Both the position numbers and the translations under genes were made by a program. DNA of 64,000 nt. Origin: Candidatus Saccharimonadales bacterium. GTDB taxonomy: Bacteria; Patescibacteriota; Saccharimonadia; Saccharimonadales; UBA10212. Shown here in pieces: positions 9,849 through 50,675 of the stretch (position 1 is the first letter of the stretch; each line of letters opens with the position of its first letter). The DNA is taken from the NCBI GenBank assembly GCA_040900055.1, contig JBBDZU010000007.1:25831-89830 (forward strand). The letters are read 5' to 3'. A model generated the notes under the pieces. That model ran no database searches. It saw only the letters and a list, made by a program, of their open reading frames with translations, and was not told the origin of the DNA.

Positions 9849-10891
9849 CTAAAACACTAGCGGTTATCTTGGCTAAGCCAGAGAACGAAATAGCCCGCCT
9901 GATTTCAAATTTAGAGCGTCTGCATGGTCACCGAAGCTACGACGTTCGGTTAATGGCCAATCACTTGCACAAAATCAATGCCAAGCTAACGCAGCTTGGT
10001 CTGGATCCTAATGACACTACAGGTCCCGAGCTCTACCAAGCTCTGCTTGGCCGATTTGATAAGGACTCTCGTAAGATTGACCAAGCTTTAGGGGTAAATT
10101 CCCAAACGAGTGCCCAAGAACGACTACAGCTGGCTGTCGAGTTTGCGCAACAGCTTTTGGGTCCAGGCGAGGTATGGGCCTTGAAACGGACGGTCGCTAA
10201 GACTCTCTTAAAGCAGCAACCACCCAAAAAACTTATGAAACTGTTGGGATACCGCACGCTAGACTCTATGCTCAAACGTCAGAATATCGCCTCACTTTAC
10301 TTAAGTGTGGGGTATGTTGAGTCGTCATCTTGGCAAAAGAACCTGCGAGCGAAAATAATCAAGCTGGGGCAGGATAACTTCGAAATGCGCTCACCCGAGA
10401 TTGTTTTTTTGCCAGCTAAGACCTGGGCAGCTGTTCGTGGACCTAACACCCATGTAGCCGTCAGCAAACTAATGGGGGCGGTAACCGTAAGATCGCTTAC
10501 ATTTACTGATATCCCAGTATCAACCTACGTGCTATTTTTGCTGGAGGGGCTAAACCAAATTGGAGCGCTTAAAACCTCTCACACATTATTAAACGCTCAT
10601 CCTGCTTTGAATTTTTGGGCCGACAGCTGGCATCTTATGGCCACTTCCGATAATCGACCTGTGTCGCTTAATTTGCACGATGTAGCTATAAATCATTTAC
10701 TTAAAGCCAGTTTCGACGGCAGGTCTTTAGAGCATGGCCGGCAGGCCTTATTGTCCGAGCTAGCCAGCTATTACCATAAAGGCGCAGACGATATTAAAGT
10801 CTTGGCCAAGTCTCTCCAAATCGAACTAACTGATTTAATGCCCCTACCTTCTAAGTTGCAGCCGGCGGTAGAATACTCGGTGGTGGAATAG
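9845..10891 (+). CDS. hypothetical protein (348 aa), no family recognised
   Basis: Long ORF. Its start overlaps the pfkB stop (ATGA), and the next gene starts 2 nt after its stop. Confidence 0.6.
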   Translation: MTKTLAVILAKPENEIARLISNLERLHGHRSYDVRLMANHLHKINAKLTQLGLDPNDTTGPELYQALLGRFDKDSRKIDQALGVNSQTSAQERLQLAVEFAQQLLGPGEVWALKRTVAKTLLKQQPPKKLMKLLGYRTLDSMLKRQNIASLYLSVGYVESSSWQKNLRAKIIKLGQDNFEMRSPEIVFLPAKTWAAVRGPNTHVAVSKLMGAVTVRSLTFTDIPVSTYVLFLLEGLNQIGALKTSHTLLNAHPALNFWADSWHLMATSDNRPVSLNLHDVAINHLLKASFDGRSLEHGRQALLSELASYYHKGADDIKVLAKSLQIELTDLMPLPSKLQPAVEYSVVE

Positions 10892-29023: not shown

Positions 29024-30268
29024 ATGGAAATGGATTTCAAACAACTAGCCGCGGCAATCAAAGTCATAGCCGAAGAAAAAAATCTCCCAGAAGAGCAAGT
29101 TACCGATGTGGTCCAGCAGGCCCTAGCGGCGGCTTGGCGCCGCGACTACGGTGACAGAGACCAAGAAGTTCGCGTGACTATGAACCTCAACACCGGCGAC
29201 GTGACAGCCTTTGTAACTAAAGAGGTTGTGCAAGTGGTTGAAGACCCCAAAATTCATATCAGTCTAACCGATGCTAAAGCTATCAAAAAAGACGCCAAAG
29301 TTGGCGAAACCGTAGAAGTTGTCCAAAAAATCGAAGATTTTGGCCGGGTAGCTGCCCAAACGGCCAAACAAGTAATCTTGCAGCGCCTGCGGGAAGCCGA
29401 GCGTGAAATTGTCTTAGCCGAATACGAGGATAAAATCGGCACGCTAGTCAATGGCGTAGTTACTCGTGTAGAAGGGCGCGTTACCCGCGTGGAGCTCGGT
29501 CGGGCCCAGGGTCTACTTCCGCTGTCGGAGCAAATTTCTAGCGAGCGCTACTATCCGGGCCAGCGGCTCAAACTTTACCTAAAAGATGTCGAAAAGGGGT
29601 TCCGGGGGCCGCAGTTAATTGTTAGCCGTGGTGCACCGGAGTTTATTAAATTAATGTTTGCTGCAGAAGTGCCAGAAATGGAAAGCAACGCCGTGGAAAT
29701 TAAAGCCATAGCTCGCGAAGCCGGTGTTCGAAGCAAAATTGCCGTTGCTAGCAATGTCCAGGGTGTTGACCCAGTCGGTACATTTGTGGGAGGCCACGGT
29801 ACGCGCATTAATGCTGTTCGCGACGAAATTGGCAACCAAGAAATGATAGATATTGTCGTTTGGGACGAAGATAAAACGGCATTTATTGCCAATGCCATGA
29901 AGCCAGCCAACGTTACTAAGGTAGAGATTAATAAAAGTGGCGATAAAGCTACCGTGGTGGTGCCAGAAGATCAGCTATCGATTGCTATCGGTAAAGCCGG
30001 GCAAAATGTTCGGCTGGCCGGCAAGCTAACCGGTTTTGAGCTTGATGTGGAGTCGGAACAAAAAGCCAAAGAAGCCAAGGCTCCAGCTGCCGATAAGCCG
30101 GCCAAAAAGGAAGAGCCACAGCCTAAGCCGGTTTCTAAGCTTAAGAAAAAGACAGAGCTAGAGAGTTCGCTACTAGAAGCCATAGAAGAGCATGGGACTC
30201 CGACAGAATCTAAACAGTCCCCAGAAGTTTTAGAAAATAAGGATGACGAGGAAAAGGCCGACTCTTAG
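29024..30268 (+). CDS. nusA: transcription termination/antitermination factor NusA with charged C-terminal tail
   Basis: N-terminal domain, S1 domain (GTLVNGVVTRVEG) and two KH domains (IGKAGQNVRLAGKLTG). A ~70-aa K/E/P-rich tail follows. Confidence 0.95.
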   Translation: MEMDFKQLAAAIKVIAEEKNLPEEQVTDVVQQALAAAWRRDYGDRDQEVRVTMNLNTGDVTAFVTKEVVQVVEDPKIHISLTDAKAIKKDAKVGETVEVVQKIEDFGRVAAQTAKQVILQRLREAEREIVLAEYEDKIGTLVNGVVTRVEGRVTRVELGRAQGLLPLSEQISSERYYPGQRLKLYLKDVEKGFRGPQLIVSRGAPEFIKLMFAAEVPEMESNAVEIKAIAREAGVRSKIAVASNVQGVDPVGTFVGGHGTRINAVRDEIGNQEMIDIVVWDEDKTAFIANAMKPANVTKVEINKSGDKATVVVPEDQLSIAIGKAGQNVRLAGKLTGFELDVESEQKAKEAKAPAADKPAKKEEPQPKPVSKLKKKTELESSLLEAIEEHGTPTESKQSPEVLENKDDEEKADS

Positions 30269-30693
30269 GTTGACGGCGGCTGCCAGAAATTCTCTATCGG
30301 ATTTCCATCATCATCTACTACACCGAAAACGTAGTAGAGTCCTGTAATTTCATACAGTTTAGTAAGTTCTTGGGGGATATTACTTAGATAAACTTCTTTA
30401 CCCAAGTCCTTTGCTTTCCTAAGAGTCTTAATAAAAACTCCCTGCGTGCTGGAGTCGATATATGTAGATCTTGAGTGATCAAAAATTATGGACCGAATAT
30501 CTTCTCTTTCTAGCAATTCCAAAGCCAGGCTCTTCGTATCAGGTGCGGTATATAGATCTTCATTTTCAGCCAAATAGATACGCCCACTTCCCGTCTCGGG
30601 ATCTATTTCAAAATATGCTTCCATTGGAACCGGGCTTCTCATCTCAGGCGACATGATTTTAGTTATACACCGGAGGCTATCAATAGCAAGCAC
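30265..30693 (-). CDS. STAS-domain protein (anti-sigma-factor-antagonist-like), orphan
   Basis: IIFDHSRSTYIDSSTQGVFIKTLRKAKDLGKEVYLSNIPQELTKLYEITGLYYVF fits the STAS pattern (DxSxxxxIDSSG...L....itGl...f). Start codon uncertain; internal ATGs are possible. Confidence 0.55.
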   Translation of the reverse strand: MLAIDSLRCITKIMSPEMRSPVPMEAYFEIDPETGSGRIYLAENEDLYTAPDTKSLALELLEREDIRSIIFDHSRSTYIDSSTQGVFIKTLRKAKDLGKEVYLSNIPQELTKLYEITGLYYVFGVVDDDGNPIENFWQPPST

Positions 30694-31896: not shown

Positions 31897-32463
31897 ATGG
31901 GTGAAGTTAAAAAACCGGTTGTATATGCCTTTATTGACGCTCAAAACTTGAAAATGGGCGTGGAAAATAATATTTATAGCGAGAAGAATAAAACAAAAAT
32001 ACTTTATGAAGGCTGGCCACTAGACTACAAAAAATTCAGACTCTATCTGACTAATAAATACGGGGTATCTAAGGCTTACCTGTTCATTGGAGAAATTCCT
32101 GGCCGATGGTGGCTATACAAAAAATTACGCGATAGGGGGTTCGAAGTTGTTCTAAAGCCCACAATCCCATACGACGACGGCACAGGTGATAGCAGTAGGA
32201 GTAAAACAAAGGGAAATGTTGACGCCGATCTCGTTCTTTATGCCGGCGCTTTGACCTACAAGCAGTACAACCAAGCCGTAATCGTTAGCGGTGATGGGGA
32301 TTTCCGACTATTGTTTGAATATCTTGACGCAGAAAATAAGCTGCTAAAAATTCTAGCACCAAACTTTCGGTACTCTAGCTTGCTGAATAAGTTCGAAAGC
32401 AAGATTGATGTGATAGGCACAAAAAAGGATGAACTAGGTCGTGAGGATAATACAAAAAAATAA
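31897..32463 (+). CDS. NYN/LabA-like (PIN-like) domain protein
   Basis: VYAFIDAQNL...GNVDADLVLYA...AVIVSGDGDF motifs of the NYN (DUF88/LabA) ribonuclease-like fold. Confidence 0.75.
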   Translation: MGEVKKPVVYAFIDAQNLKMGVENNIYSEKNKTKILYEGWPLDYKKFRLYLTNKYGVSKAYLFIGEIPGRWWLYKKLRDRGFEVVLKPTIPYDDGTGDSSRSKTKGNVDADLVLYAGALTYKQYNQAVIVSGDGDFRLLFEYLDAENKLLKILAPNFRYSSLLNKFESKIDVIGTKKDELGREDNTKK

Positions 32464-32526
32464 CTGGCCTCAGCGGTCGGTCGAAACCTTAGGCTTAGCC
32501 AGTTGTAGTAATACATCTTACGATGC
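32453..32526 (-). ncRNA. predicted ~70-nt small RNA, antisense to the 3' end of the NYN gene
   Basis: Bounded by a minus-strand TTGACA-17-TAGTAT promoter and a minus-strand intrinsic terminator (AACTGGC...GCCAGTT stem, then A and seven T). Transcript ends are inferred. Confidence 0.4.
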
Positions 32527-32532
32527 AACAAC

Positions 32533-32561
32533 ATACTAACAATATTATGTCAACATGTCAA
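32533..32561 (-). promoter_or_regulatory. sigma70-like promoter on minus strand (TTGACA-17 nt-TAGTAT)
   Basis: The plus strand reads TGTCAA at 32556-32561 and ATACTA at 32533-32538, separated by a 17-nt spacer. A second TTGACA copy lies 8 nt downstream. Confidence 0.5.
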
Positions 32562-32949
32562 GGAGCTATCCACATGTGGCACTCGTGCGCTCGCCAGCAG
32601 TGAATCTGCGGAACGACAAGCGGTCCTCGTTCCTTCGGGCAGTCCTCGATTCTGGCTTTTGTCTCGCTTCAAACTCTCTCTGTTTTCTCACGGCTGAACT
32701 ATTTATTCTTCCTCAAAACACAATAATCAACAGTATGTTTACTATACTGGCCATTCCCGCCAGTACAATTATCGGTCCGCCGTAGTCCCGTATAGCTGTA
32801 ACGATAATAGAAACCTTAGTCGTTGGGATAACGTACAAGTAATTTTAGTCATTGCCTACTCGGTTTTACTTGGGCCACGAAACTTAATTTACTGCAAAAT
32901 ATACCAAGACGAGGCAGTAAGAAATAAAAATGCACACAGGAATGCTCAA

Positions 32950-33060
32950 GTGATCAATTGGACAAATAAAGTAATAAACTTTGTTCTAGCTGCTGAGCTA
33001 CTCTTTATAGCTACGTTCGTAGCGGCCCTGGTGGTGCTGCTATATAGCGTAATTCTGTAA
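32950..33060 (+). CDS. possible 36-aa hydrophobic peptide (very tentative)
   Basis: GTG start 7 nt after AGGAA. The product is MINWTNKVINFVLAAELLFIATFVAALVVLLYSVIL, a single predicted TM helix. Below the ORF-track length cutoff. Confidence 0.2.
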   Translation: MINWTNKVINFVLAAELLFIATFVAALVVLLYSVIL

Positions 33061-33087
33061 ATATTTGTAACTTAGGCTGGGCGAGGG

Positions 33088-33114
33088 TTGGCACTCGGGG
33101 TTGACGAGTGCTAG
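33088..33114. promoter_or_regulatory. CIRCE-like inverted repeat (HrcA-type operator) overlapping the clpC promoter
   Basis: TTGGCACTC-GGGGTTGAC-GAGTGCTAG compared with consensus TTAGCACTC-N9-GAGTGCTAA. The spacer ends in TTGAC (-35-like). TATAAT at 33122-33127, ATG at 33140. Confidence 0.8.
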
Positions 33115-33139
33115 TTTGTGATATAATGGGGGCTGTAAA

Positions 33140-35635
33140 ATGATTCCAAATTCACCTGATTTTCAAGAATTTTTAGGCCATTTGACCAACAATGCTTTGC
33201 ATTCGCTAAAGCAAGCCGACGCTATAGCCAGGGCTTCTAGCAGCGCCTACATTGGCACCGAGCATTTGCTGCTAGGTGTTTTAGCCCAAGATGGCTCCAT
33301 GGCTTCTAAAATCTTGGAAGGTACCGGCATTACGCTGGATAGGGCGCGGTTGGCGCTAAACCTAACGCCTAAAACCCTAGTTATCAATATGGGCGGCAAA
33401 GGTTTATCCGAAACCGCCAAACTAACCCTTAAAATGGCCTGGGAAATTGCCCAAGAGTTTGGCCAAGACTACTGCGGCACCGAGCACATTCTATACAGCA
33501 TCCTAAGCCAAAAGAACGCTCGGGCTACCACTTTGCTACGCGACATGAGCGTGGACATTGATAAATTATCATCCGAGGTCGAGCAGTTTCTTAACCGCCA
33601 GCAGTACGAGCACGACGGCGTAGGCTCTGCAAGCCGCCGCCGCACCAAAAATGCCAAGAAAAACGCTTTAGAATTTTTTGGCACCGACCTTACGGCACTT
33701 GCTAAAGAAGGCAAGCTTGATCCGGTAGTTGGTCGTGAGCCCCAAATCCGCCGAGTGATTACCATTTTAAACCGGCGCACTAAAAATAACCCGGTACTGA
33801 TCGGCGAACCGGGCGTTGGTAAAACCGCCATTGTAGAGGGCATTGCCCAGCGCATTATTAACGAGGAAGTTCCCGACAGTCTGCTTGATAAGCGCATTAT
33901 TACGCTAGATTTAGCCGGGATGATTGCCGGGACTAAATACCGCGGCGAGTTCGAAGACCGCTTAAAGAAAGTTATTGCGGAACTTGAGCAAGACAAAAAC
34001 ATCATTGTCTTTATTGACGAGCTGCACTTAATCGTCGGCGCTGGCGCGGCCGAGGGTTCTATGGACGCCGGCAACATTCTAAAACCCAGCTTAGCTCGGG
34101 GCAAGATCCAAATGGTTGGGGCCACGACTACCGATGATTACACCCGCTACATAGAAAAAGATGCTGCGCTTGAGCGACGCTTCCAGCCGATTCAAGTGCC
34201 TGAAGCTACCGTGGTGGAGACCTTAGCGATCCTTAAGGGCCTGCGCAGCCACTACGAGGAATTCCACGGCGTAAAAGTGGACGATGAAGTCCTAGGCGAC
34301 ACTGTTGGCTTTGCCCGCCGCTACATTAACGACCGCTACATGCCAGACAAAGCCATTGACTTACTGGACGAAACTTCTGCTTACCTGCGAGTCAACCGCG
34401 GCAAAACACCGCCGCAGCTTCGCCAGTTACACAAGGAGCTAAAACTGTCCAATACCCGCATAGAAGATGCCGTGGACGGCGAAGATTACGAAAAGGCTGC
34501 CAAAGAAAAACAAAAGGCCAGCCAAATTAAAGACCGCATTAAGCAAATGGAAGCGACCTACAAGGCCGGCAAACCTATCACAATTTCTTCCGACGATGTA
34601 GCCGAAACTGTTGCCCGTATGACTGGCGTGCCTACCCGTAAAGTTATCCGTAGCGAAGCTAAATACTTAGTAAATCTAGAAAAAAACCTTGGCAAATACA
34701 TTATTGGCCAGGAAGAGGCTGTAAAAACTGTAGCCGGCGCCGTGCGGCGCTCGCGCTCCGGTATCTCTAGCGAAAAGCGGCCGATTGGCTCGTTTATATT
34801 CTTAGGACCAACAGGTGTTGGTAAAACAGAACTTGGCAGAGTTTTGGCCCGCGAATTCTTTGGTAGCGACGACGCCTTAGTCAAAATTGACATGAGCGAA
34901 TTTGGCGAACATCACACTGTAGCCCGCCTAATTGGTGCCCCGGCTGGCTACGTTGGCTATGACGACGGCGGCCAGTTAACCGACCGCATTCGCCGACAAC
35001 CCTATAGCGTGGTGTTATTTGACGAAATCGAAAAAGCCCACCCCGATGTTTTCAATATGCTGCTGCAAATACTAGAAGACGGTACATTATCCGACGCCAA
35101 AGGCCGGAAAATTGACTTTACCAACACTATTATCATTATGACCAGCAATATTGGTGCCGAGAAACTGCAAAAAGAGGCCAGCTTTGGCTTTCGTGCCGCC
35201 AACCCGGCCGATTTGGAGAACCTAGACGAGCTGCACGCCGCCAATAAGAGCAAAGTGCTCGAAGACCTTAAAAAGACTATGCGACCGGAGCTGCTAAACC
35301 GGATCGATAAAATAGTTGTCTTTAGGGCTTTAACTAAAAAAGATGCTCTAAAGATTTTAGACATCCAGCTTGATGACCTTCGAACTCGGCTAATCAAAAA
35401 AGGTATTGGTCTAGAAGTAAGTAAAACAGCTAAAGACTATCTGCTGAGTAAGGGTTATGATGCCCAAAATGGTGCGCGGCCGATGCGGCGCTTGCTGCAG
35501 GAAACATTGGAAGACGCTATCGCTGGCGGCCTGTTGGAGGACGCCTACAACAAAGGCGACGTTGTGCAAGTGAAGACTAAAAAATCTGCCAAAGCCGAAG
35601 AGCCGCAACTAGTTTACGCGGCTACCCCAGAATAA
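33140..35635 (+). CDS. clpC: ATP-dependent Clp protease ATP-binding subunit ClpC
   Basis: Two Clp_N repeats, two AAA+ modules (GEPGVGKTA, GPTGVGKTE) and a UVR-like linker (GEDYEKAAKEKQKA). 831 aa. Confidence 0.95.
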   Translation: MIPNSPDFQEFLGHLTNNALHSLKQADAIARASSSAYIGTEHLLLGVLAQDGSMASKILEGTGITLDRARLALNLTPKTLVINMGGKGLSETAKLTLKMAWEIAQEFGQDYCGTEHILYSILSQKNARATTLLRDMSVDIDKLSSEVEQFLNRQQYEHDGVGSASRRRTKNAKKNALEFFGTDLTALAKEGKLDPVVGREPQIRRVITILNRRTKNNPVLIGEPGVGKTAIVEGIAQRIINEEVPDSLLDKRIITLDLAGMIAGTKYRGEFEDRLKKVIAELEQDKNIIVFIDELHLIVGAGAAEGSMDAGNILKPSLARGKIQMVGATTTDDYTRYIEKDAALERRFQPIQVPEATVVETLAILKGLRSHYEEFHGVKVDDEVLGDTVGFARRYINDRYMPDKAIDLLDETSAYLRVNRGKTPPQLRQLHKELKLSNTRIEDAVDGEDYEKAAKEKQKASQIKDRIKQMEATYKAGKPITISSDDVAETVARMTGVPTRKVIRSEAKYLVNLEKNLGKYIIGQEEAVKTVAGAVRRSRSGISSEKRPIGSFIFLGPTGVGKTELGRVLAREFFGSDDALVKIDMSEFGEHHTVARLIGAPAGYVGYDDGGQLTDRIRRQPYSVVLFDEIEKAHPDVFNMLLQILEDGTLSDAKGRKIDFTNTIIIMTSNIGAEKLQKEASFGFRAANPADLENLDELHAANKSKVLEDLKKTMRPELLNRIDKIVVFRALTKKDALKILDIQLDDLRTRLIKKGIGLEVSKTAKDYLLSKGYDAQNGARPMRRLLQETLEDAIAGGLLEDAYNKGDVVQVKTKKSAKAEEPQLVYAATPE

Positions 35636-47470: not shown

Positions 47471-48712
47471 ATGTCTCTGTCTACCCAACCGTATAAGGGC
47501 GCCCGTGATTTTTATCCGGAAGATAAACGCCTACAAAAATACATTTTTGACAAGCTGCGGCAAGTGGTAGAGAGTTTTGGCTACCAGGAATACGACGCCC
47601 CTATTTTAGAGCCGCTGGATATTTATTTAGCCAAGACCGGCGAAGAAATTGTTAACGAGCAACTCTACTCTTTTGTAGACCGCGGTGGGCGGCGGGTGGC
47701 CATTAGGCCGGAGATGACTCCATCTGTTAGCCGTATGGTTGCCGGCCGACGTCAAGAACTGGCCTATCCATTGCGCTGGTATAGCATTGCCAATTTTTGG
47801 CGTTATGAACGACCACAGCGCGGTCGCTTGCGCGAACACTACCAACTAAACGCCGATATTTTTGGAGTGGAAGGGGTTGCGGCTGACGCCGAAATCATCC
47901 AAGTGGCTGATTCTATCCTCAAATCACTAGGAGCTAAGGCCGAGATGTATAGAATCAACATCAACAGTCGGGTAGCTATGATTCAAGCAATGAAAGAGTT
48001 TGGTCTAGAGGGAACTGAGCTGAAAGCCGTATACAAACTGGTCGATAAAATGCCAAAACTGACTGACGAAGATTTTAAAAAAGTATTGTCAGAAAATTTG
48101 TCCGCGGAAAAAGCCACTAAGCTGCTGAAATATCTAGATAATAATCAACCGCCGGAAAAGGTCGACAGGTTACTATCCCTACTAAAAAGTGTTGGCGTAA
48201 CAAGCGCTACTTACGAGCCGAGTGTAGTTCGTGGGCTTGAATATTACACCGACATTGTTTTTGAGGTGTTCGACACTAACCCCGAGAATGCTAGGGCGTT
48301 GTTCGGTGGCGGGCGCTACGACGGGTTGGTGGGGCTGTTTGGGGTAGAGCCGCTACCAACCGTAGGTTTTGGTATGGGTGACGTAACGCTGCAAAACTTT
48401 TTAGAGGCGCATAAACTTTTGCCGAAGCTACAAGTCGAAACCGATGCCATTGTGGTATTAATTGGCGATTTGTACGAATCTGCCCAAAGCCTGCTGGCGC
48501 AGCTGCGTGAGTCCGGCTTAAAACTGGCCGTAGACAGCAGCGGCCGTAAACTAGATGCTCAGCTTAAAAGTGCTGATAAGTCTGGCGTCAAGCACGTAAT
48601 TTTTATTGGCGAAGCCGAACTAAAATCCAAAAAGCTAAAACTTAAAAATTTACAGACCGGGGATGAGAGGCAGCTGAGCGCAGAAGAATTGGTCAAGGCT
48701 CTTCAAAGCTGA
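47471..48712 (+). CDS. hisS: histidine--tRNA ligase
   Basis: GARDFYPED, RPEMTPSVSRM, WRYERPQRGRLREHYQ and GGGRYDGL motifs. ATG 7 nt after TATAAT. Confidence 0.95.
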   Translation: MSLSTQPYKGARDFYPEDKRLQKYIFDKLRQVVESFGYQEYDAPILEPLDIYLAKTGEEIVNEQLYSFVDRGGRRVAIRPEMTPSVSRMVAGRRQELAYPLRWYSIANFWRYERPQRGRLREHYQLNADIFGVEGVAADAEIIQVADSILKSLGAKAEMYRININSRVAMIQAMKEFGLEGTELKAVYKLVDKMPKLTDEDFKKVLSENLSAEKATKLLKYLDNNQPPEKVDRLLSLLKSVGVTSATYEPSVVRGLEYYTDIVFEVFDTNPENARALFGGGRYDGLVGLFGVEPLPTVGFGMGDVTLQNFLEAHKLLPKLQVETDAIVVLIGDLYESAQSLLAQLRESGLKLAVDSSGRKLDAQLKSADKSGVKHVIFIGEAELKSKKLKLKNLQTGDERQLSAEELVKALQS

Positions 48713-49995
48713 TGCAGGTAAGCCGAACGGATATTAGCCCAACAATGGTGCGACTGACGGTTGAAACCGGTGAGCCTGAGCTGTTGCCTATTAAAACTCA
48801 TGTACTAGGGCATTTTGCCGGGTCTGTAAACGTGCCTGGATTTAGGGCCGGCAAGGTCCCGACCTACTTACTGGAAAAGCACGTAGATCAGCGCGCATTA
48901 CTTGATGAATTCATGGAGCATGCTGTTAACAGCCTTTATAGACGAGCTGTAGAGTCCGAGAAACTAAGACCTGTACTGCCGCCCAAAGTCGAGGTCAAGA
49001 AATTTGTACCATATAGCGACCTGACGTTCGAGATAGAAGTTGATGTTGTGGGCAACATAAAGCTGCCAGACTATAAAAAAATTAAATTAGCTAAACCAAA
49101 AGCGACTGTCTCGGCAGAGGAAGTTAACAATGTGATTTCCTCGCTGCAAAAACAACTAGCCGAGCGTAAAGAAGTAGATAGACCAGCCAAAACTGGCGAC
49201 GAAGTAGTTATCGACTTTACTGGCAATCACCAAGACGGCAAGCCGGTAAGTGGCGGTACGGGTAAAGATTACCCGCTGTTACTTGGCGGCAATAGCTTTA
49301 TTCCAGGGTTTGAAGACCAGATTGTTGGCTTAAAAGCCGGCCAAACCAAAGAGTTCTCCCTAACCTTTCCGAAAGATTACGGGGCGAAGGCTTTAGCTGG
49401 GGTTAAAGTGGACTTTGGCGTTAGTGTTAGAAAAGTCCACCAGTTGGTAGAGCCTAAAGTTGATGATGCTTTAGCAGCTAAAGCTGGGCCTTTTAAGACT
49501 GTGGTGGAGCTAAAAGCCGACATTAAAAAACAAATGGGTATAGAAAAGAATAGGCAAGCTGACCGAGATTTTGAAACTGAGTTAATTAAACAAATTGTTA
49601 CTGGATCTAGCGTTGAAGTTCCGGATAGTTTAATTGACGAGCAAGTAAAGCAATCAGAGGAAACCGAGAGGCGCAATTTGATTGCTCGCGGTCAAACCTG
49701 GCAGGAGCATTTAGCCGATGAGGGAGTCACCGAGGAGCAGCATCGCCAGCGCCATAGGCCAGATGCCGCCGAAAAAGTTAAAGCCGGCCTAGTTTTATCG
49801 GAAATAGCCGAAGCAGAAAATATCAATGTTACGCCAGAGGAAGTCGCCAGCCGAATTGAGCTGCTTAAGGGCCAATATAAAGATGCCGCTATGCAAGCCG
49901 AGCTAGATAAGCCCGAAAACCGCCAAGACATTGCCGCCCGCTTACTAACCGAAAAAGTCATTGCCAGACTGGTCGAGCATAGCCAAATAAGCTAG
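48712..49995 (+). CDS. tig: trigger factor
   Basis: N-terminal ribosome-binding region (GFRAGKVP), central FKBP-like domain (FIPGFEDQIVGLKAGQ) and helical C-terminal arm. Start overlaps the hisS stop. Confidence 0.92.
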   Translation: MQVSRTDISPTMVRLTVETGEPELLPIKTHVLGHFAGSVNVPGFRAGKVPTYLLEKHVDQRALLDEFMEHAVNSLYRRAVESEKLRPVLPPKVEVKKFVPYSDLTFEIEVDVVGNIKLPDYKKIKLAKPKATVSAEEVNNVISSLQKQLAERKEVDRPAKTGDEVVIDFTGNHQDGKPVSGGTGKDYPLLLGGNSFIPGFEDQIVGLKAGQTKEFSLTFPKDYGAKALAGVKVDFGVSVRKVHQLVEPKVDDALAAKAGPFKTVVELKADIKKQMGIEKNRQADRDFETELIKQIVTGSSVEVPDSLIDEQVKQSEETERRNLIARGQTWQEHLADEGVTEEQHRQRHRPDAAEKVKAGLVLSEIAEAENINVTPEEVASRIELLKGQYKDAAMQAELDKPENRQDIAARLLTEKVIARLVEHSQIS

Positions 49996-50018
49996 CACTC
50001 TTGCTTGACGAGTGCTAA
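49992..50018. promoter_or_regulatory. CIRCE-like inverted repeat (HrcA-type operator) overlapping the clpP promoter
   Basis: CTAGCACTC-TTGCTTGAC-GAGTGCTAA. The spacer again ends in TTGAC. TATAAT at 50029-50034, ATG at 50043. The left arm overlaps the tig stop codon. Confidence 0.85.
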
Positions 50019-50042
50019 TTTATCGGAATATAATAATTGCGT

Positions 50043-50675
50043 ATGGACAAACCCAGCAACCAGATTTTGGTGCCCACAGTTATAGAGCAAGAGGGCCGGA
50101 TAGAGCGAGCCTACGACATCTACAGCCGCCTGCTTAAGGACCGCATTATCTTTTTGGGCGATGAAGTTAATCAACACACCTCCAACCTAATCGTCGCCCA
50201 GATGCTATTTTTGGAGAACGAAAGCCCAGACAAAGACATCTTGTTTTATATCAACAGCCCTGGTGGCAGTGTTTACGATGCCTTTGCCATTTATGACACT
50301 ATGCAATTTGTTAAAAACGATATTCAAACAGTAGGCATCGGCGTACAGGCTTCGGCTGCAGCTTTTCTGCTAAGCGCAGGCACCAAAGGCAAGCGGCTAC
50401 TTTTACCCCACGCAACTGTGATGATCCACCAACCTTCTAGCGCGTCCCAGCGCTCCTCAATAAGTGACTTAGAAATCGACCTTAAAGAAGGCATTAGGCT
50501 AAAGCACTTGCTTAACGAGATTTTAGCCAAAAATACTGGCCAGAAGTTGGCCAAAATCGAAAAAGACGTTGACCGCAACTACTGGATGAGCGCCGAAGAA
50601 GCCGAGGCCTATGGGCTAGTGGATAAAGTTATTGACAGCCGGAAGATCGCTGCCACAGTCCAAAAACAAGCGTAG
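50043..50675 (+). CDS. clpP: ATP-dependent Clp protease proteolytic subunit
   Basis: [21 protein letters not shown] (catalytic Ser) and MIHQP (His). I prefer the ATG at 50043 over the listed TTG at 50037. Confidence 0.95.

Follow-up and report, generated by a model that had tools for sequence, protein, structure and literature searches.

CIRCE-type operators embedded in the clpC and clpP promoters of Saccharibacteria point to an HrcA regulon reaching the Clp protease

Known HrcA/CIRCE Systems

HrcA is a repressor that under normal conditions binds CIRCE, the inverted repeat that controls the expression of chaperones, in or near promoters and loses this binding under stress, its activity being dependent on GroEL/ES (PMC3842655, PMC8762339). 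The groES/groEL genes are the only HrcA target that is constant across bacteria (PMC545781). This text deals with two CIRCE-like palindromes that precede clpC and clpP in a stretch of 64,000 nucleotides from a Candidatus Saccharimonadales bacterium (contig JBBDZU010000007.1), the whole of which is called the window. As judged from sequence comparison, both palindromes are very probably functional CIRCE operators for HrcA, located on σ70-type promoters of the two genes.

The classical HrcA/CIRCE regulon is described from Bacillus subtilis (groESL and hrcA-grpE-dnaK-dnaJ), Chlamydia and the δ-proteobacteria. The window shares with it the consensus sequence TTAGCACTC-N9-GAGTGCTAA and the position of the site in or beside a vegetative promoter; in addition, a groES/groEL site is present in this phylum and the order hrcA-grpE-dnaK is found in the cultivated saccharibacterium Southlakia epibionticum. 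There are differences as well, as clpC and clpP are the targets, the −35 element lies within the operator, which is classically located downstream of the promoter, and HrcA of Patescibacteria is short (about 240 amino acids). In the organisms that have the classical regulon, clpC and clpP are controlled by CtsR, σ32 or ClgR. The CtsR regulon consists of the class III heat-shock genes of Firmicutes, i.e., ctsR-mcsA-mcsB-clpC, clpP and clpE. It resembles the present case in that a repressor relieved by stress acts on clpC and clpP from an operator overlapping the promoter, but the window has a CIRCE-type inverted repeat and no heptad direct repeat above chance level.

HrcA regulons reaching lon, clpB, clpL or clpP are known elsewhere, and the sites described here belong to the known HrcA/CIRCE family, with no new mechanism. 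In Streptococcus salivarius, clpP is reportedly under dual control of CtsR and HrcA (title cited in PMC3842655). Regulation of clpL by HrcA in Lactobacillus gasseri is cited in PMC3192767. Mycoplasma pneumoniae has the layout tig-CIRCE-lon, in line with the statement in the preliminary description of this DNA that CIRCE occurs upstream of lon in Mollicutes, and this layout of trigger factor, CIRCE and protease gene parallels tig-CIRCE-clpP in the window (PMC7737663). These three cases concern single species or dual control with CtsR, whereas here both parts of ClpCP are involved, clade-wide and with no CtsR box.

The same design is also found in Lachnospiraceae and other Clostridia, in which GCACTC-N4-TTGAC-GAGTGCTA followed by a −10 element precedes clpB (TIGR03346, 1311 bits) and lon (TIGR00763, 761 bits). 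While identical in design to the window sites, these differ in phylum, in the length of HrcA (about 345–357 amino acids) and in their targets, i.e., clpB, lon and small heat-shock protein genes. In Lachnospiraceae (L002, L019, L095 and many more listed), CIRCE additionally precedes hsp18/hsp20, hrcA and dnaJ-type genes, which indicates that the predicted HrcA regulon is broad in this family. Here, htpG and dnaJ were recognized as CIRCE targets by N-terminal resemblance.

What appears to be new is that both ClpCP components would be under CIRCE, apparently without CtsR, across a whole Saccharibacteria clade. In the searchable full-text literature, no papers were found that link HrcA or CIRCE with Saccharibacteria, TM7x, Patescibacteria or the Candidate Phyla Radiation (CPR).

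Two Probable CIRCE Operators in the Window

The first operator, TTGGCACTCGGGGTTGACGAGTGCTAG, consists of the arms TTGGCACTC-N9-GAGTGCTAG around the spacer GGGGTTGAC and deviates from the consensus used for scoring, TTAGCACTC-N9-GAGTGCTAA, at two of the 18 arm positions. In the second, CTAGCACTCTTGCTTGACGAGTGCTAA, with arms CTAGCACTC-N9-GAGTGCTAA and spacer TTGCTTGAC, one of the 18 arm positions is off consensus. The spacer is exactly 9 nt long in both. Coordinates are collected in Table 1.

When both strands of the window are searched, these two are the only CIRCE-like sites with at most three mismatches, the third-ranked candidate having five. Dinucleotide shuffling gives an expectation of 0.04 such sites against the two observed, and none of 100 shuffles contained two. 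Both palindromes are real and not the product of chance. Short palindromes do occur, and nothing further speaks for a chance origin without function; given the expectation above and the fact that independently selected loci retain the sites without exception (76 of 76 for clpC, 30 of 30 for clpP; see below), such an origin is next to impossible.

Both spacers end in TTGAC, and the G with which the right arm begins completes a TTGACG −35 element that straddles the border between spacer and arm. At clpC this is followed by the extended −10 element TGATATAAT, of the form TGnTATAAT, with TATAAT at 33122–33127 and the ATG at 33140; at clpP, the promoter was found by a promoter scan. The distance from the end of CIRCE to the ATG is 25 nt for clpC and 24 nt for clpP. 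The preliminary description had reported a match of 16 of 18 arm positions for the clpC site, a spacer ending in TTGAC, a TTGACG −35 element, TATAAT at 33122, the ATG at 33140, and the same design at clpP from position 49992. Direct reading of the sequence confirms the match at clpC, the promoter elements and the start codon are as it had stated, and the clpP site indeed repeats the design, with 17 of 18 arm positions matching and the same TTGACG overlap.

Control by CtsR was considered as well and rejected. Matches to RGTCAAA-NAN-RGTCAAA with three mismatches number 10 in the window against 6.2 expected, which is chance level. No CtsR box lies in the stretch from either CIRCE site to the start codon of its clp gene, and among the open reading frames (ORFs) upstream of clpC there is no family match to ctsR, mcsA or mcsB.

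Conservation Among Relatives

To follow the clpC site, 80 metagenome loci were used that had been picked by ClpC protein similarity alone (72–87% amino acid identity). One CIRCE with at most three mismatches lies upstream of clpC in 76 of them. The other four are contigs that end 87–173 nt upstream of the gene, hence all 76 informative loci have the site. The 786 kb of sequence that these loci comprise hold exactly 76 CIRCE sites at this threshold, all of them upstream of clpC. For clpP, 30 loci were fetched by exact protein match from three ClpP protein clusters (80–82% identity). All 30 have one CIRCE with at most one mismatch, located 20–105 nt before the annotated start.

When the clpC sites are aligned on CIRCE, only the arms, TTGAC and a block resembling TGnTATAAT are conserved, and the flanks are not. 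Over the 76 unique sites, T2, GCACTC, GAGTGC and A26 are invariant and positions 1, 3, 25 and 27 vary. The mismatches of the window site are frequent variants in the clade (G3 in 28 of 76 sites, G27 in 11 of 76). Among 71 unique clpC sites the promoter occurs in two registers, with TTGAC/TTGCA at spacer positions 1–5 in 61 and at positions 5–9 in 10; the window site belongs to the latter. Within each register subgroup the distance of the −10 element to the palindrome is fixed, and so is that of the TGnTATAAT-like block in the closest relatives.

This pattern of conservation also bears on the possibility that the inverted repeat works as RNA, either by terminating or stabilizing an upstream transcript such as the tig mRNA or as part of the clp mRNAs. 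Effects of transcribed CIRCE elements on mRNA stability are reported from other bacteria. The two predicted hairpins are more stable than those of shuffled sequences (−17.1 and −12.8 kcal/mol, z = −3.7 and −2.9), and the palindrome of the clpP site includes the stop codon of tig. The arms, however, are invariant rather than covarying, and changes at the variable positions are uncoordinated, the pairs 1/27 and 3/25 including A-C in 11, G-T in 17 and G-C in 11 sites. Moreover, the position of the palindrome relative to the TTGAC and TGnTATAAT blocks is fixed, which places the element upstream of the predicted transcription start sites of clpC and clpP. The loop is 7–9 nt and no T-run follows the stem. 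An intrinsic (Rho-independent) terminator was rejected at both sites, as the T-run is missing and the terminator scan of the plus strand reported none at either. Altogether, a function as RNA is highly improbable, and operators for HrcA remain the preferred explanation of the two palindromes.

Motif Distribution and Canonical Targets

The exact pattern GCACTC-N4-TTGACGAGTGCTA was searched in one genome per species across 185,579 species genomes, which gave at least 119 loci. These loci show the distribution of the motif and not its frequency or its independent conservation, since they were chosen by the motif itself. Among the matches listed, the next gene in Saccharibacteria and other Patescibacteria is clpC-like in at least 10 cases, clpP in at least seven, groES in at least 11 and groEL in at least two. 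In Patescibacteria other than Saccharibacteria, dnaK follows in at least two and a short hrcA in at least four of the matches listed. One metagenome-assembled genome (MAG), GL124, has both a clpC and a clpP match, like the window. Family scans verified GroES, GroEL, ClpP and HrcA at the pattern loci, with the Parcubacteria HrcA above the TIGR00331 cutoff.

At groES/groEL of Saccharibacteria MAGs, CIRCE is embedded in the promoter as it is at the clp genes (among the matches listed). The genes that the preliminary description named as the classical HrcA targets, groESL and hrcA-grpE-dnaK, thus recur in this phylum, with CIRCE at groES/groEL in Saccharibacteria MAGs and at dnaK and hrcA in other Patescibacteria. 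At the sequence level, the repeat with its spacer, the location in a promoter, the conservation and the canonical targets in the lineage are all found as for CIRCE. The HrcA-type regulon over the Clp machinery that the same description had proposed is supported by the sites, their conservation, the canonical targets and the presence of HrcA in the phylum.

The HrcA Repressor

The genome of S. epibionticum encodes an HrcA ortholog, SEML1_0720, a protein of 242 amino acids assigned to K03705 with the domains PF01628 and PF03444 (Wang et al., 2023, PMC10633639 supplement). Its gene heads an hrcA-grpE-dnaK operon (PMC10633639). In the transposon sequencing (Tn-seq) data of this organism, hrcA and grpE are listed as ES in all three essentiality columns, groES and groEL as NE/ES/ES, and clpC (SEML1_0512) and clpP (SEML1_0493) as NE in all three columns (PMC10633639). 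That hrcA is called essential could be due to polar effects on grpE-dnaK.

In Patescibacteria generally, HrcA is a diverse short form of 227–256 amino acids, as seen in 581 representatives of 50% clusters at E < 1e-30. Examples are found at L049, L070, L088 and L069 and among the proteins P0001–P0490. Compared to the 338-amino-acid Thermotoga protein (1STZ), about 90 central residues are missing. Two stretches of the short proteins match the HrcA model, and the winged helix is the only part with a clear match to 1STZ. The ECOD domains of the Southlakia protein are 1stzA1 and 1stzA3 only, i.e., winged helix and sensor (PMC10633639). Taken together, the match limited to the winged helix and the two ECOD domains suggest that the inserted dimerizing domain was lost in the short form.

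Several points weigh against HrcA control of clpC and clpP in this lineage. Using phmmer with six HrcA queries, both short and long, no hrcA was found among all six-frame ORFs of the 64-kb window, nor in any Saccharibacteria locus examined. The gene is also absent from about 12 kb of flanking sequence in a Logan assembly of the same organism (SRR27977660), of which about 9.3 kb lie upstream of the window and 2.7 kb lie downstream. Profile searches of a set of 5.8 billion proteins returned HrcAs only from Parcubacteria, Moranbacteria and Andersenbacteria or unlabelled short ones, and none labelled Saccharimonadales; a search of 50% representatives returned 150 unlabelled proteins and again no HrcA with this label. 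Literature searches found no HrcA-binding, expression or transcription start site data for Saccharibacteria at the clpC and clpP promoters. The pattern-scan loci, being selected by motif, add no independent conservation. Finally, the predicted clpC promoter is assigned by consensus match and conservation only, and the 15 nt between its −35 and −10 elements is a short spacing. This promoter is missing from the list of the promoter scanner because the scanner takes only spacings of 16–18 nt. A scan of viral contigs gave only four long-form HrcAs, which come from unrelated organisms of higher or lower GC content.

The failure to see hrcA in the window, its flanks and the Saccharibacteria loci examined would fit a conserved operator that is read by another regulator, e.g., a different repressor that took over CIRCE. 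Likewise, none of about 30 Saccharibacteria-type matches listed precedes hrcA, and the HrcAs of Patescibacteria are atypically short (about 230–256 amino acids), with some 90 residues missing in the middle. We know of no CIRCE-binding protein other than HrcA, however, and the core half-sites equal the HrcA consensus in 76 of 76 unique sites. In sister lineages of Patescibacteria, short hrcA genes bear CIRCE on their own promoters. CIRCE is furthermore located at groES/groEL, the constant HrcA target (PMC545781), and a cultivated saccharibacterium has an HrcA ortholog with the HrcA DNA-binding domain (PMC10633639). A regulator other than HrcA is for these reasons considered very unlikely.

Proposed Mechanism and Significance

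With HrcA as the regulator, the following mechanism can be proposed, in which established HrcA biology is the model for the occupancy of the sites by HrcA, the direction in which it regulates, the signal for induction and the transcription start sites. Under normal conditions, a dimer of HrcA, whose activity GroEL/GroES maintain, would sit on the palindrome. The palindrome would span approximately positions −47 to −21, thus holding the −35 element and most of the spacer between −35 and −10, and for this reason bound HrcA is proposed to exclude RNA polymerase. Unfolded proteins would titrate GroEL and leave HrcA inactive, by which clpC and clpP would be freed from repression at the same time as groES-groEL, and probably hrcA-grpE-dnaK as well. 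Folding and degradation of proteins would in this way be co-regulated by one repressor in the lineage.

A wider claim is more tentative, namely that an HrcA of about 240 amino acids might be the single master regulator of proteostasis in Saccharibacteria and possibly in much of the Patescibacteria. This HrcA would lack the inserted dimerizing domain of the 1STZ type and would replace the roles of CtsR, ClgR or σ32. The chaperonin, the DnaK system and ClpCP would all be co-repressed via promoter-embedded CIRCE, often on leaderless mRNAs. Although doubtful in this full form, the claim would, if true, give the essentiality of Southlakia hrcA a meaning beyond polarity on grpE-dnaK, i.e., a need to restrain the regulon.

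Next to nothing has been learned so far about how transcription is regulated in Saccharibacteria and the wider CPR. The present comparison offers a concrete candidate regulon that is clade-wide and has near-invariant operators, consisting of groES-groEL, clpC, clpP and probably hrcA-grpE-dnaK. One repressor appears to govern both folding and degradation in a genome of about 1 Mb. Cultivable, naturally transformable Saccharibacteria (TM7x, Southlakia) permit direct testing, and the predicted promoters would be defined and probably stress-inducible ones for use in genetic tools.

Short and Long Leaders

The start codons lie very close to the predicted promoters, at 12 nt from the −10 element for clpC and 8 nt for clpP, and at 6–7 nt in the clpP relatives L026, L118 and L031. 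Being so near the −10 element, these start codons imply that the clpC and clpP mRNAs are leaderless or nearly so, if the promoters are used. The clpP mRNA, as well as the clpC mRNA in a subset of relatives, thus look like leaderless transcripts on the basis of the predicted elements.

Predicted distances of 6–12 nt between the −10 element and the start codon, without a Shine–Dalgarno sequence, are seen in the window (33127–33140 and 50034–50043) and in relatives, i.e., L026, L031 and L118 for clpP and L121, L123, L144, L151, L181 and L187 for clpC. Among 70 unique clpC upstream regions, six are of this short type, and in the other 64 the start codon follows the end of CIRCE at a distance of 54–227 nt. 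A YACAG motif occurs in 32 of the 64 long clpC leaders (L120–L199), compared to 8.7 ± 2.7 in shuffled sequences (maximum 18). The motif is mostly located 35–41 nt 5′ of the clpC start, often just after a hairpin, e.g., AACGAC...GTCGTTACAGC in L126. Processing at this motif is one possibility, a regulatory RNA element another.

Genes at and Around the Two Sites

The features of both loci are listed in Table 1.

Table 1. Operators, predicted promoter elements and genes at the clpC and clpP loci, with positions in the window.
Feature	Position	Strand	Description
CIRCE operator 1, clpC promoter	33088..33114	.	2 mismatches; orthologous site in 76/76 informative clpC loci
−35-like TTGACG, clpC	33101..33106	+	Spacer positions 5–9 and first right-arm base
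Extended −10 (TGnTATAAT), clpC	33119..33127	+	15 nt after −35; consensus match
clpC	33140..35635	+	ClpC-type class I Clp/Hsp100 ATPase, 831 amino acids
tig (trigger factor)	48712..49995	+	TIGR00115, 361 bits (cutoff 180)
CIRCE operator 2, clpP promoter	49992..50018	.	1 mismatch; site in 30/30 clpP loci
−35-like TTGACG, clpP	50005..50010	+	Promoter scan, 11/12 hexamer matches
−10 TATAAT, clpP	50029..50034	+	18 nt after −35; ATG 8 nt downstream
clpP	50043..50675	+	Proteolytic subunit, 210 amino acids; NF001368, 285 bits (cutoff 249)

The ATPase encoded by clpC contains the Pfam domains Clp_N (twice), AAA, AAA_lid_9, AAA_2 and ClpB_D2-small. Its alignment to the ClpC/ClpC1 structures 6EM8, 3J3S and 8A8U is one unbroken stretch from end to end (E = 2e-232). 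With two AAA+ modules, a double Clp_N and colinearity over the full length with ClpC and not ClpB, the protein is of the ClpC subfamily. An identity as ClpB was rejected, as the score of the protein stays under the cutoff of the ClpB equivalog, its alignment to this model is split, and it matches ClpB only in pieces. A Pfam match to the UVR motif was not obtained for the ClpC of the window; the motif is listed for the Southlakia ortholog (PMC10633639).

The tig stop codon, TAG at 49993–49995, sits within the left arm of the second operator, so that the 47-nt gap between tig and clpP is occupied wholly by operator and promoter. The genes located 5′ of clpC are nusA and genes for a STAS protein, a glycosylase and an NYN protein. 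At the DNA level, the window is about 70% identical to Saccharibacteria MAG loci, and its ClpP has 100% identity with an NCBI protein from a Candidatus Saccharimonadales MAG. The gene orders hisS-tig-clpP-rpoB-rpoC and nusA...clpC are shared by the window and S. epibionticum (PMC10633639).

Several minor observations concern the region upstream of clpC. The STAS-domain protein, encoded on the minus strand at 30265–30693 between nusA and clpC, resembles the anti-sigma-factor antagonist type (TIGR00377, below cutoff). The 624 nt that precede the first operator (32464–33087) contain no ORF of at least 100 amino acids and only a hydrophobic ORF of 36 amino acids at 32950–33060. Rfam gave nothing in 32400–33160 even at E values up to 1, and one tRNA in the whole window. 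Positions 32596–32689 weakly resemble positions 10137–10239 of locus L148 (73%), and the similarity of the window to the relative L051 starts exactly at the first base of CIRCE.

A further CIRCE with a promoter is located at 722–744 of L030 (CBFCWH010000002.1, an uncultured bacterium), with the arms TTGGCACTC...GAGTGCTAG as in the clpC site of the window. It is followed by no ORF of at least 60 amino acids and, within about 80 nt, by a hairpin and a T-run. This locus may produce a short CIRCE-controlled transcript.

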